Source of the DNA: a virus
Taxonomy: Duplodnaviria > Heunggongvirae > Uroviricota > Caudoviricetes
Virus record (IMG/VR): IMGVR_UViG_3300039368_000121
DNA length: 4,746 nt
Strand: one strand, 5' to 3'
Within the stretch, counting starts at the first letter, position 1. The number at the start of each line of letters is the position of its first letter. The notes under the pieces were generated by a model. That model did not search any database. It was given only the letters and a program-made list of their open reading frames with translations, and was not told the origin of the DNA. Position numbers and translations under genes: made by a program. Shown in pieces: positions 1-4,746 of this stretch.

Positions 1-502
1 CCGGCGGCTGCAGGTGCAGAGTGATTTGCCGTGGTGGCTGGTCTGCCGGGGGACGATTCATAAATTCCGCTGTGTGCCGCATCTCACCGGGCGGCGCTTT
101 GAGCACGGGGTGACGGACTGTTACACGCTGTTCCGGGATGCTTATCATCTGGCGGGGATTGAGATGCCGGATTTTCATCGCGAGGATGACTGGTGGCGTC
201 ACGGTCAGAATCTCTATCTGGATAATCTGGAGGCCACAGGGCTGTATCAGGTGCCGTTGTCATCAGCACAACCGGGCGATGTGCTGCTGTGCTGTTTTGG
301 TTCATCGGTGCCGAATCATGCCGCCATTTACTGTGGTGATGGCGAGCTGTTGCACCATATTCCTGAACAACTGAGCAAACGAGAGAGGTATACCGACAAA
401 TGGCAGCGACGCACACACTCCCTCTGGCGTCACCAGGCATGGCACGCATCTGCCTTTACGGGGATTTACAACGATTTGTCCGCCGCATCGATCTGCGTGT
501 GA
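1..502 (+). CDS. K: Tail tip assembly protein K, C-terminal NlpC/P60 peptidase-like domain; 5'-partial, the reading frame is open to the window start (codons at 2-13 have no stop) and the N-terminal part lies upstream of the window
   Basis: The translation (…VTDCYTLFRDAYHLAGIEMPDFHREDDWWRHG…NHAAIYCGDGELLHHIPEQL…) matches my memory of the lambda gpK C-terminal region. The NlpC/P60-type catalytic residues are present: Cys codon tgt at 119-121, His codon cat at 317-319, His codons at 353-358. Stop TGA at 500-502. The track's start at 14 is a GTG with an open frame upstream, so the true start is outside the window. Position immediately upstream of I and J fits lambda gene order. Confidence 0.85.
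   Translation, partial: RRLQVQSDLPWWLVCRGTIHKFRCVPHLTGRRFEHGVTDCYTLFRDAYHLAGIEMPDFHREDDWWRHGQNLYLDNLEATGLYQVPLSSAQPGDVLLCCFGSSVPNHAAIYCGDGELLHHIPEQLSKRERYTDKWQRRTHSLWRHQAWHASAFTGIYNDLSAASICV
381..388 (+). promoter_or_regulatory. Shine-Dalgarno-like purine run (GAGAGAGG) upstream of the I start codon
   Basis: GAGAGAGG at 381-388 ends 11 nt before the ATG at 400. The spacing is on the long side but it is the only good ribosome-binding site near either candidate start of I. Confidence 0.4.
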
Positions 503-1041
503 AAACGGGGGCCGAAGCCATCCGGGCGCTGGCCATGCAGATCCCGGCGTTTCGTCAGAAGCTGAGCGACGGCTGGTATCAGGTACGCATTGCCGGGCGT
601 GATACAGGTGAAACGGAATTATCAGCCCGTCTGAATGAACCGCTGGCAAATGGTGCTGTGATCCATATCGTGCCGCGTCTGGCAGGAGCCAAAAGTGGCG
701 GTGTGTTTCAGGCTGTGCTGGGGGCGGCTGTTATGGCGGTTGCTATATGGATGCCGGGGGTAGGAATTATGGCGAGTAATCTGCTGTTTTCTCTCGGTGC
801 CAGTATGACGCTTGGCGGTGTTGCACAGATGCTGGCCCCTAAACCCAAAACCCCCCGCACACAGACAACGGATAACGGCAAACAGAACACCTATTTTTCT
901 TCACTGGATAATATGGTTGCCCAGGGCAATGTTCTGCCCGTTCTGTACGGTGAAATGCGCGTGGGATCACGTGTGGTATCTCAGGAGATCAGCACAGCAG
1001 ATGAAGGTGATGGTGGTCAGGTTGTGGTGATTGGTCGCTGA
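400..1041 (+). CDS. I: Tail assembly protein I (lambda gpI family), 213 aa
   Basis: The N-terminus (MAATHTLPLASPGMARICLYGDLQRF…) and C-terminus (…NTYFSSLDNMVAQGNVLPVLYGEMRVGSRVVSQEISTADEGDGGQVVVIGR) match my recollection of lambda gpI, with a Gly/Ala-rich hydrophobic middle segment. ATG at 400 is the first start after the in-frame stop at 364-366; an alternative in-frame ATG lies at 439. Stop TGA at 1039-1041. The gene overlaps the 3' end of K by 103 nt in a different frame. Confidence 0.85.
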   Translation: MAATHTLPLASPGMARICLYGDLQRFVRRIDLRVKTGAEAIRALAMQIPAFRQKLSDGWYQVRIAGRDTGETELSARLNEPLANGAVIHIVPRLAGAKSGGVFQAVLGAAVMAVAIWMPGVGIMASNLLFSLGASMTLGGVAQMLAPKPKTPRTQTTDNGKQNTYFSSLDNMVAQGNVLPVLYGEMRVGSRVVSQEISTADEGDGGQVVVIGR

Positions 1042-1101: not shown

Positions 1102-4100
1102 ATGGGTAAAGGCAGCAGTAAGGGGCATACCCCGCGCGAAGCGAAGGACAACCTGAAATCCACGCAGCTGCTGAGTGTGATTGATGCCATCAGCGAAGGG
1201 CCGATTGAAGGTCCGGTGGATGGATTAAAAAGCGTGCTGCTGAACAGTACGCCGGTGCTGGACAGTGAGGGGAATACCAATATATCCGGCGTCACGGTGG
1301 TGTTCCGGGCAGGTGAGCAGGAGCAGTCACCGCCGGAGGGATTTGAATCCTCCGGCTCCGAGACGGTGCTGGGTACGGAAGTGAAATATGACACGCCGAT
1401 CACCCGCACCATTACGTCGGCAAACATCGACCGTCTGCGCTTTACCTTCGGTGTACAGGCACTGGTGGAAACCACCTCAAAGGGTGACAGGAATCCGTCG
1501 GAAGTCCGTCTGCTGGTTCAGATACAGCGTAATGGTGGCTGGGTGACGGAAAAAGACATCACCATTAAGGGCAAAACCACCTCGCAGTATCTGGCCTCGG
1601 TGGTGGTGGGTAACCTGCCGCCGCGCCCGTTCAATATACGGATGCGCAGGATGACGCCGGACAGCACCACAGACCAGCTGCAGAACAAAACGCTCTGGTC
1701 GTCATACACCGAAATCATCGATGTGAAACAGTGCTACCCGAACACGGCACTGGTCGGCGTGCAGGTGGATTCGGAGCAGTTCGGCAGCCAGCAGGTGAGC
1801 CGTAATTATCATCTGCGCGGGCGCATTCTGCAGGTGCCGTCGAACTATAACCCGCAGACGCGGCAATACAGCGGTATCTGGGACGGAACGTTTAAGCCAG
1901 CATACAGCAACAACATGGCCTGGTGTCTGTGGGATATGCTGACCCATCCGCGCTACGGCATGGGGAAACGTCTTGGTGCGGCGGATGTGGATAAATGGGC
2001 GCTGTATGTCATCGGCCAGTACTGCGACCAGTCAGTGCCGGACGGCTTTGGCGGCACGGAGCCGCGCATCACCTGTAATGCGTACCTGACCACACAGCGC
2101 AAGGCGTGGGATGTGCTCAGTGATTTCTGCTCGGCGATGCGCTGTATGCCGGTATGGAACGGGCAGACGCTGACGTTCGTGCAGGACCGGCCATCAGATA
2201 AGGTGTGGACCTATAACCGCAGTAATGTGGTGATGCCGGATGATGGCGCGCCGTTCCGCTACAGCTTCAGCGCCCTGAAGGACCGCCATAATGCCGTTGA
2301 GGTGAACTGGATTGACCCGAACAACGGCTGGGAGACGGCGACAGAGCTTGTGGAGGACACGCAGGCCATTGCCCGTTACGGTCGTAACGTCACGAAGATG
2401 GATGCTTTTGGCTGTACCAGCCGGGGGCAGGCACACCGCGCCGGGCTGTGGCTGATTAAAACAGAACTGCTGGAAACGCAGACCGTGGACTTCAGCGTGG
2501 GTGCCGAAGGGCTTCGCCATGTACCGGGCGATGTCATTGAAATCTGCGATGATGACTATGCCGGTATCAGCACCGGCGGGCGCGTGCTGGCGGTAAACAG
2601 CCAGACCCGGACGCTGACGCTCGACCGTGAAATCACGCTGCCATCTTCCGGCACCACGCTGATAAGCCTGGTTGACGGGCAGGGGAGTCCGGTCAGCGTG
2701 GAGGTTCAGTCCGTCACCGACGGCGTGAAGGTGAAAGTGAGCCGTGTTCCTGACGGCGTTGCTGAATACAGCGTATGGGGGCTGAAGCTGCCGACGTTGC
2801 GCCAGCGCCTGTTCCGCTGCGTGAGTATCCGTGAGAACGACGACGGCACGTATGCCATCACCGCCGTGCAGCATGTACCGGAAAAAGAGGCCATCGTGGA
2901 TAACGGGGCGCACTTTGACGGCGACCAGAGCGGCACGGTAAATGGTGTCACGCCGCCAGCGGTGCAGCACCTGACCGCAGAAGTCACCGCAGACAGCGGG
3001 GAATACCAGGTGCTGGCGCGCTGGGACACGCCGAAGGTGGTGAAGGGCGTGAGCTTCCTGCTTCGCCTGACCGTGGCAGCGGATGACGGCCGTGAGCGGC
3101 TGGTCAGCACGGCCCGGACGACGGAAACCACTTACCGCTTCACACAACTGGCTCTGGGGAACTACAGGCTGACAGTCCGGGCAGTAAATGCGTGGGGGCA
3201 GCAGGGCGATCCGGCGTCGGTATCGTTCCGGATTGCCGCACCGGCAGCGCCGTCGCGGATTGAGCTGACGCCGGGCTATTTTCAGATAACCGCCACGCCG
3301 CATCTTGCGGTTTATGACCCGACGGTACAGTTTGAGTTCTGGTTCTCGGAAAAACGGATTGCGGATATCAGGCAGGTTGAAACCAGCGCGCGTTATCTTG
3401 GTACGGCACTGTACTGGATAGCCGCCAGTATCAATATCAAACCGGGCCATGATTATTATTTTTACGTTCGCAGTGTGAACACCGTTGGCAAATCGGCATT
3501 CGTGGAGGCTGTCGGTCAGCCGAGTGATGATGCATCAGGCTATCTGGATTTTTTCAAAGGCGAGATAGGGAAAACCCATCTGGCTCAGGAGCTGTGGACG
3601 CAGATTGATAACGGTCAGCTTGCGCCTGACCTGACTGAAATCAGGACGTCCATAACGGATGTCAGCAATGAAATAACACAGACCGTCAATAAGAAACTGG
3701 AAGACCAGAGTGCAGCGATCCAGCAGATACAGAAGGTTCAGGTTGATACAAATAATAACCTGAACAGCATGTGGGCAGTGAAGCTGCAGCAGATGCAGGA
3801 CGGACGCCTTTATATTGCGGGTATCGGTGCCGGTATTGAGAACACCCCTGACGGCATGCAGAGTCAGGTGCTGCTGGCAGCAGACAGGATTGCGATGATT
3901 AATCCTGCGAATGGCAACACAAAGCCGATGTTTGTTGGTCAGGGCGATCAGATATTCATGAATGAAGTGTTCCTGAAACGCCTGACGGCCCCCACCATTA
4001 CCAGCGGCGGTAATCCTCCGGCATTTTCCCTGACATCAGACGGGAGACTGACGGCGAAAAATGCGGATATCAGTGGCAGTGTGAATGCGAACTCAGGAAC

Positions 4101-4599
4101 GCTCAACAATGTCACGATTAACCAGAACTGTACGATTAAGGGCATGCTGGAGGCGACCCAGGTCAGAGGAGATTTCGTTAAAGCTGTATCAAAAGCCTTC
4201 CCGAAAAAAGTCGGTACGTGGGGTAACACGGAAACACCAAACGGTACGGTTACAGTCACCATCAGCGATGATCATAACTTTGACCGCCAGATTATTATTC
4301 CGCCCATTATTTTTAACGGTATAGCGTATGACGATCCGGGGAGCGGAAATAACCCAGGAGGCACGCGATACACGGGTTATGGTTTTGAAGTTCGCAAAAA
4401 CGGCGTATTAATCGCATCCAGAGAAACTAAAGGGGCCATTCCCGGTAGTTACAGTGCAGTTATTGATATGCCGAGTGGCAGGGGAAGCGTCACTCTGGAG
4501 TTTAAGATTTTCCAGAAAGGCAATCAGGGGGCAGGCAATATCACCGACTGTACGGTGATTGTGACCAAAAAAGCCGCTTCCGGCATCAGTATTCGTTGA
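1102..4599 (+). CDS. J: Host specificity protein J / central tail fibre (tip attachment protein), 1165 aa
   Basis: The N-terminus ([58 protein letters not shown]…) matches lambda gpJ as I recall it. The length is close to lambda J (1132 aa as I recall). The middle region contains two fibronectin type III-like segments (about nt 2950-3240 and 3240-3530, e.g. …[37 protein letters not shown]…). The C-terminal region (…[19 protein letters not shown]…[13 protein letters not shown]…[14 protein letters not shown]) is recognisably gpJ-like but diverged. The ORF is uninterrupted, has a good ribosome-binding site, and stops at TGA 4597-4599 ahead of a strong terminator. Confidence 0.95.
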
Positions 4600-4617
4600 A
4601 ATATTTATAACCCCAAT

Positions 4618-4646
4618 AAAGGGCGTCAGGAATGACGCCTTTTTTA
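4618..4646 (+). terminator. Rho-independent (intrinsic) terminator downstream of J
   Basis: GGCGTCA (4622-4628) pairs with TGACGCC (4633-4639) around the loop GGAA (4629-4632). The stem is extendable by AAAG/(C)TTT flanks and is followed directly by a run of six T (4640-4645). It sits 19 nt after the J stop codon. Confidence 0.8.
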
Positions 4647-4673
4647 TTGCAGAAAAGCGAGAGGTAATTATGG

Positions 4674-4705
4674 TAAGCGTCAACGGAGCACCGTATTGAC
4701 GCTTA
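4674..4705. repeat. Perfect 10-bp inverted repeat (TAAGCGTCAA / TTGACGCTTA) with a 12-nt spacer
   Basis: The segment 4674-4683 is the exact reverse complement of 4696-4705, with spacer CGGAGCACCGTA. It overlaps a 9-codon mini-ORF (4670-4699) that has its own ribosome-binding site and contains a TTGACG -35-like hexamer (4696-4701). Confidence 0.5.
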
Positions 4706-4746
4706 TTTATTGGTGAGTACTACGTTCCATGGCAGGAGTTCGTCAA

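Follow-up and report, generated by a model that had tools for sequence, protein, structure and literature searches.

The window analyzed here, a stretch of 4,746 nucleotides of a tailed phage, contains lambda-like tail genes followed by the end of an insertion element (Table 1). As in lambda, the genes follow the order K-I-J-lom and the first 103 nt of I lie within K, with lom being represented only by its ribosome-binding site and start codon ahead of the insertion sequence. In the matching phages, the counterpart of K is annotated either as K or as a C40 peptidase. The center of gene I (nt ~601-800) shows only 51-59% DNA identity to both lambda and phage 434, between flanks of about 90% or higher, and appears from the alignment to be another small mosaic patch. 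A terminator is annotated in the 434 record at the place homologous to the hairpin located just past J, and a terminator scan reported this hairpin (4622-4645) in the minus-strand reading only. The Rfam scan of the whole window returned no match.

Table 1. Features of the window, with positions counted from its first nucleotide.
Feature	Position	Strand	Description and evidence
K (3' part)	1..502	+	Tail tip assembly (NlpC/P60 peptidase), truncated at the left edge of the window; ORF 14-502; Pfam NLPC_P60
I	400..1041	+	Tail tip assembly, 213 aa; Pfam Lambda_tail_I
J	1102..4599	+	Tip attachment / central tail fiber protein; intact ORF, 1165 aa
J aa 1-800	1102..3500	+	Hub and FNIII/Ig domains; 94-100% aa identity to lambda and to 434
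J aa ~801-950	3500..3950	+	Variant module, alpha-helical shaft / upper central fiber; alignment, DNA identity
J aa ~951-991	3951..4074	+	Conserved lower central fiber; 92-94% to lambda and 434
J aa 992-1165	4075..4599	+	434-type receptor-binding module: junction, connector, Ig-like domain, stop codon
Terminator-like hairpin	4622..4645	+	GGCGTCA-GGAA-TGACGCC then TTTTTT, just past J; read from the sequence
lom start	4660..4672	+	Ribosome-binding site and ATG; alignment with 434, lom annotated here in relatives
IS66-family element (ISEc47-like)	4673..4746		Terminal ~74 nt, beginning with GTAAGCGTCAACGG; truncated at the right edge of the window

The IS66-family element is inserted directly after the lom start codon and disrupts this gene. 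All phage and Escherichia coli matches to the window end at nt 4676, including that of the best complete E. coli genome, which is 98.1% identical up to this position. The exact junction between J and IS66 was found neither in the GTDB species-representative genomes nor in the complete E. coli genomes.

The protein encoded by J displays the Pfam series Phage-tail_3, FNIII-A_GpJ, Ig_J, Ig_J_second, Phage_Tail_Tip and Ig_GpJ_C in the expected order and above the cut-offs. This succession of hub, FNIII/Ig domains, tail-tip fiber and C-terminal Ig-like receptor-binding domain, together with the gene order, places it among the lambda-like gpJ proteins. All of the J peptides quoted in the original prediction are present in this ORF. 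Several other reading frames lie inside or across J (4085-4324 on the plus strand, 3948-4262 and 4408-4683 on the minus strand) and were discarded, being without any support. A longer unsupported ORF of 418 aa is located on the minus strand (2194-3450), wholly within J, and most likely reflects only the composition of this gene.

We compared J of the window (1165 aa) with those of lambda (1132 aa) and phage 434 (1137 aa) in a three-way alignment. The original prediction had proposed that the N-terminal and central parts of J are close to lambda, whereas the C-terminus has diverged within a conserved gpJ framework. The former holds for the first 800 residues and fails for aa ~801-950, which are only 28-60% identical to lambda and equally to 434. 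The latter was confirmed. The identity to lambda is about 93-94% in aa 951-1000 and drops to 28-48% in aa 1001-1165, where the identity to 434 is 91-100%. Likewise, the last 174 aa (nt 4075-4599) are 41.9% identical to lambda J in BLASTP, with 5 gaps, far from the near-identity over the C-terminal segment that the original prediction had named as evidence against it. We therefore discarded the possibility that the window carries the LamB-binding allele of lambda (lambda aa 964-1132), the DNA of this region being only 39-59% identical.

At the DNA level, the identity to lambda is still 89% at nt 4001-4100 and falls to 59%, 54%, 39%, 47% and 46% in the five consecutive bins of 100 nt that follow, while the identity to 434 over nt 4101-4600 is 95-99%. 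This step from ~95 to ~50% identity to lambda is far more than chance variation. The fall past nt 4100 places the mosaic break of J at nt ~4095-4155, within or just past a conserved junction peptide. This junction stretch forms the left edge of the module, where aa 992 of the window is equivalent to aa 964 of lambda, and the lower central fiber preceding it (aa ~951-991) serves as the joint at which the receptor-binding domain is recombined. The segment singled out previously (nt 4080-4599) hence coincides with a real mosaic module.

The Ig_GpJ_C family (PF12421) covers aa 1029-1164 with 88.9 bits, against a Pfam cut-off of 26.2. We modeled this domain with AlphaFold2 using 25 homologs (mean pLDDT 78.3) and searched the PDB with Foldseek. 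The four best matches (8xck, 8xcj, 9wca and 9wcb; E about 1e-15, TM 0.68-0.69) are the receptor-binding domains of lambda gpJ (8xck, 8xcj) and of A8 gpJ (9wca, 9wcb). Both the profile score and the fold, which is that of the lambda receptor-binding domain, assign the C-terminus of J to the Ig_GpJ_C receptor-binding domains.

Phage 434 J (UMO75286.1) matches the last 174 aa of the window's J at 169 positions (97.1%, BLASTP) without gaps, and the DNA of the module (megablast, nt 4080-4599) is 97.5-97.7% identical to 434 and to lambda h434 imm21. The same search matched 74 phage records, eight of which are 100% identical: mEp332, PhiR34_1, PhiR42_1, PhiR68_2, ev243 (two records), Kati and phiSTEC1575-Stx2k. 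Over this region, several Stx2 phages reach an identity of 98-98.5%. In tblastn searches of the phage records, the distribution of identities was bimodal, as 74 records showed at least 90% and 172 less than 60%, with none in between; the module therefore belongs to a discrete allele class. The window falls within the 434 type by sequence, with at least 90% identity over the whole module, no indels and a clear separation from other alleles. The module is thus the 434 ('h434') allelic form of the J receptor-binding domain, an allele that has already been described rather than a new one. It is also widespread, as we found it in 2118 of the 5426 complete E. coli genomes (about 39%), with an identity of at least 99% in 565 of them.

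Only five substitutions separate the window from 434: N1047D, R1127G, I1136V, Q1138H and G1143R, the second of which falls in the DMPSGRG stretch. All five sites are recurrently polymorphic within the allele class, and the window carries the majority residue at each of them. Therefore, the window represents the common form of this allele and the laboratory 434 a minority form.

Phage 434 is reported to use OmpC, and lambda carrying 434 J to bind OmpC instead of LamB (PMC11101478, PMC3509688). The 434 allele serves as the host-range alternative to lambda h+. Because the module is 97% identical to this characterized allele, the receptor of the window's J domain is, by homology, very likely OmpC. 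The original prediction that the receptor is probably not LamB is thereby supported, the domain being the 434 allele. The use of OmpC is not restricted to 434: among the receptors of the lambdoid mEp phages it is reported to rank second in use, with the individual phages left unspecified (PMC11893012), and the J domain of Gifsy-1, from the same family, also uses it. For the phages with an identical module (mEp332 and the PhiR phages), we found no direct receptor data in the literature; the SNIPE preprint tested the mEp332/PhiR panel for ManYZ dependence only. A literature search on h434 together with OmpC returned no matching paper.

The classical hybrid, lambda h434 imm21 (OM418627), must be interpreted cautiously as evidence for the J domain alone, and we did not retain it as such. 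In this record, the sequence changes from lambda-type to 434-type between positions ~17619 and ~17637, at about codon 706 of J, and from there the 3' end of J, lom, stf and tfa are all of 434 type. Therefore, the hybrid cannot separate the J domain from the side fiber, and the 434 side fiber could formally be involved in its OmpC dependence. More specific evidence comes from engineered particles in which lambda gpJ was fused at aa 964 to other alleles and combined with a P2-type Stf, and which delivered DNA into lamB-deleted cells (PMC11338833). Chimeras with the A8 and 1A2 alleles lost their LamB dependence and needed OmpC (PMC11338833), and the structure of A8 gpJ in complex with OmpC is available (9wcb). 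These chimeras show that the module downstream of the junction peptide suffices to set the receptor. Their joint at lambda aa 964 corresponds to aa 992 of the window, and these independent data narrow the gap between J and the side fiber as determinants.

Taken together, we consider it highly probable that the C-terminus of J is an exchangeable 434-type receptor-binding module that docks on OmpC. Three copies of the Ig-like domain form the tip of the trimeric central tail fiber and, from the homology with 434, would dock on the trimeric porin OmpC and not on LamB, their surface loops inserting into the porin trimer. Docking would spread the lower ends of the three domains, and new hydrogen bonds would then compact and twist the beta-prism fiber. 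As a consequence, the helical shaft would flip, the FNIII strings would dissociate and the tail tip would open for DNA ejection. Such a trigger mechanism has been described for lambda gpJ and LamB (PMC11101478), and we infer it for J of the window by analogy with lambda gpJ-LamB and A8 gpJ-OmpC. The module itself was gained by recombination at the conserved junction, the same joint as in the engineered receptor-swapped lambda particles.

Other readings of this module have to be considered. Instead of the K-12-type OmpC, or besides it, the 434-like domain could use another receptor such as OmpF, or it could be limited to some of the OmpC variants. Its five departures from 434 are indeed located at polymorphic hot spots. 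In phi21, receptor use shifts with one to four substitutions in J, and single substitutions can add receptors, from LamB to OmpC to OmpF (PMC11336670). Furthermore, gpJ alleles tell OmpC variants apart, as 1A2 takes the OmpC of EDL933 and not that of MG1655 (PMC11338833). Nevertheless, we find this reading unlikely, since the window has the majority residue at all five sites, with 434 being the minority form, and its domain is 97% identical to 434 without indels. Moreover, the phages with a DNA-identical module include some recorded as grown on K-12 MG1655 or ECOR13. A related speculative idea, to which we give little credence, is that the majority 434-type form may recognize other OmpC variants or an extra porin compared with the laboratory 434. 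OmpC is polymorphic, and the hot spots would in that case reflect an ongoing arms race with this porin, while the longer shaft of the window might alter the transmission of the signal to the tip.

That LamB is still bound despite the divergence seems scarcely credible. The native receptor of phage 21, whose J is also diverged, is LamB (PMC11336670), and the window's domain folds like that of lambda and shares about 42% of its residues with it. However, the domain is nearly identical to an allele reported to be OmpC-dependent, and its surface stretches, among them one insertion and one deletion of 6 aa each, are unrelated to those of lambda. It is also very doubtful that J is the relic of a decaying prophage, without a current role in adsorption whatever its specificity. 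In support of decay, the IS66-family element, inserted 71 nt past the end of J, interrupts lom, and fragmentary and frameshifted copies of the domain are abundant in E. coli assemblies. The insertion is at least one hit to the prophage, so that virions may never contain this J, a point that also counts against the main reading. Nevertheless, the J ORF is intact over its 1165 codons, K, I and J keep the arrangement of lambda, and lom of lambda is dispensable for virion formation; the window is also too short for judging the rest of the prophage. An OmpC-docking 434-type module therefore remains our preferred reading.

The C-terminus is not the only part of J that differs from lambda. In the diverged region upstream (aa ~801-950), the shaft between YLDFFKG and MWAVK has 76 residues versus 48, the additional 28 aa being equal to four heptads. 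The DNA of nt 3500-3900 is 100% identical to that of Kati, PhiR34_1, PhiR42_1, PhiR68_2, phiSTEC1575-Stx2k and vB_EcoS-569R4. This region is a second exchanged module, comprising the alpha-helical shaft and the upper central fiber, which is already present in sequenced phages. Residues 902-932 of lambda J, with Q922 and F924, trigger the prophage defense protein HepS (PMC13043305). The triggering peptide is conserved in the window at nt ~3880-3975 (J aa ~930-960) with its Q-I-F core kept, and HepS would probably still sense this J.

With these results, OmpC can be proposed from sequence alone as the probable receptor of the prophage. They also confirm that the C-terminal module of J is a separate cassette that is always exchanged at the same joint, which is of use for host-range annotation and for the choice of modules in engineered lambda particles. 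Nevertheless, earlier descriptions exist of this allele, of the receptor reported for it and of its modularity, and no new question is opened. This is an ordinary allele, widely distributed and characterized before, so that the C-terminus of J is less informative than originally supposed, when it was regarded as the most informative part of the window.

Among the known systems, the closest relatives of the module are phage 434 and lambda h434 imm21, in which the junction with a lambda-like body, the downstream terminator and the start of lom are all as in the window. In contrast, upstream of the junction, 434 has the helical shaft of lambda, where the window has the different, longer module. 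This variant shaft is shared at 99.3-100% by the phages with a DNA-identical receptor-binding module (mEp332, PhiR34_1, PhiR42_1, PhiR68_2, ev243, Kati and phiSTEC1575-Stx2k), which are 96-98% identical across the whole window. However, their lom is intact, whereas the window has the IS66-family insertion there.

Lambda gpJ (8xck in the closed form; 8xcj with LamB) belongs to the same Pfam family as the window's domain and has the same Ig-like fold. Both share the framework motifs, namely the junction peptide, DDHxFDRQ, DMPxGRG and KKxAxGIS, but they differ in four unrelated surface stretches (aa ~1035-1047, 1074-1096, 1103-1118 and 1134-1150), the window having six extra residues in the second and six fewer in the last. 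The reported receptor of lambda gpJ is LamB, unlike that reported for the 434-type allele. The gpJ proteins of A8 (9wca; 9wcb with OmpC) and 1A2 are natural prophage alleles with the same module boundary and fold as in the window. Nevertheless, the window carries neither of them, as its domain is 47.5% identical to A8 (9wca) and 44.9% to the 1A2-like P0070; the 3' end of 1A2, taken from an OCR-damaged copy, matches the P0070/P0077/P0082 group and not the window. Finally, J of phi330, whose receptor is OmpC as determined by knockout and complementation (PMC12502783), has a C-terminal domain of the same family that is 47.2% identical to that of the window.
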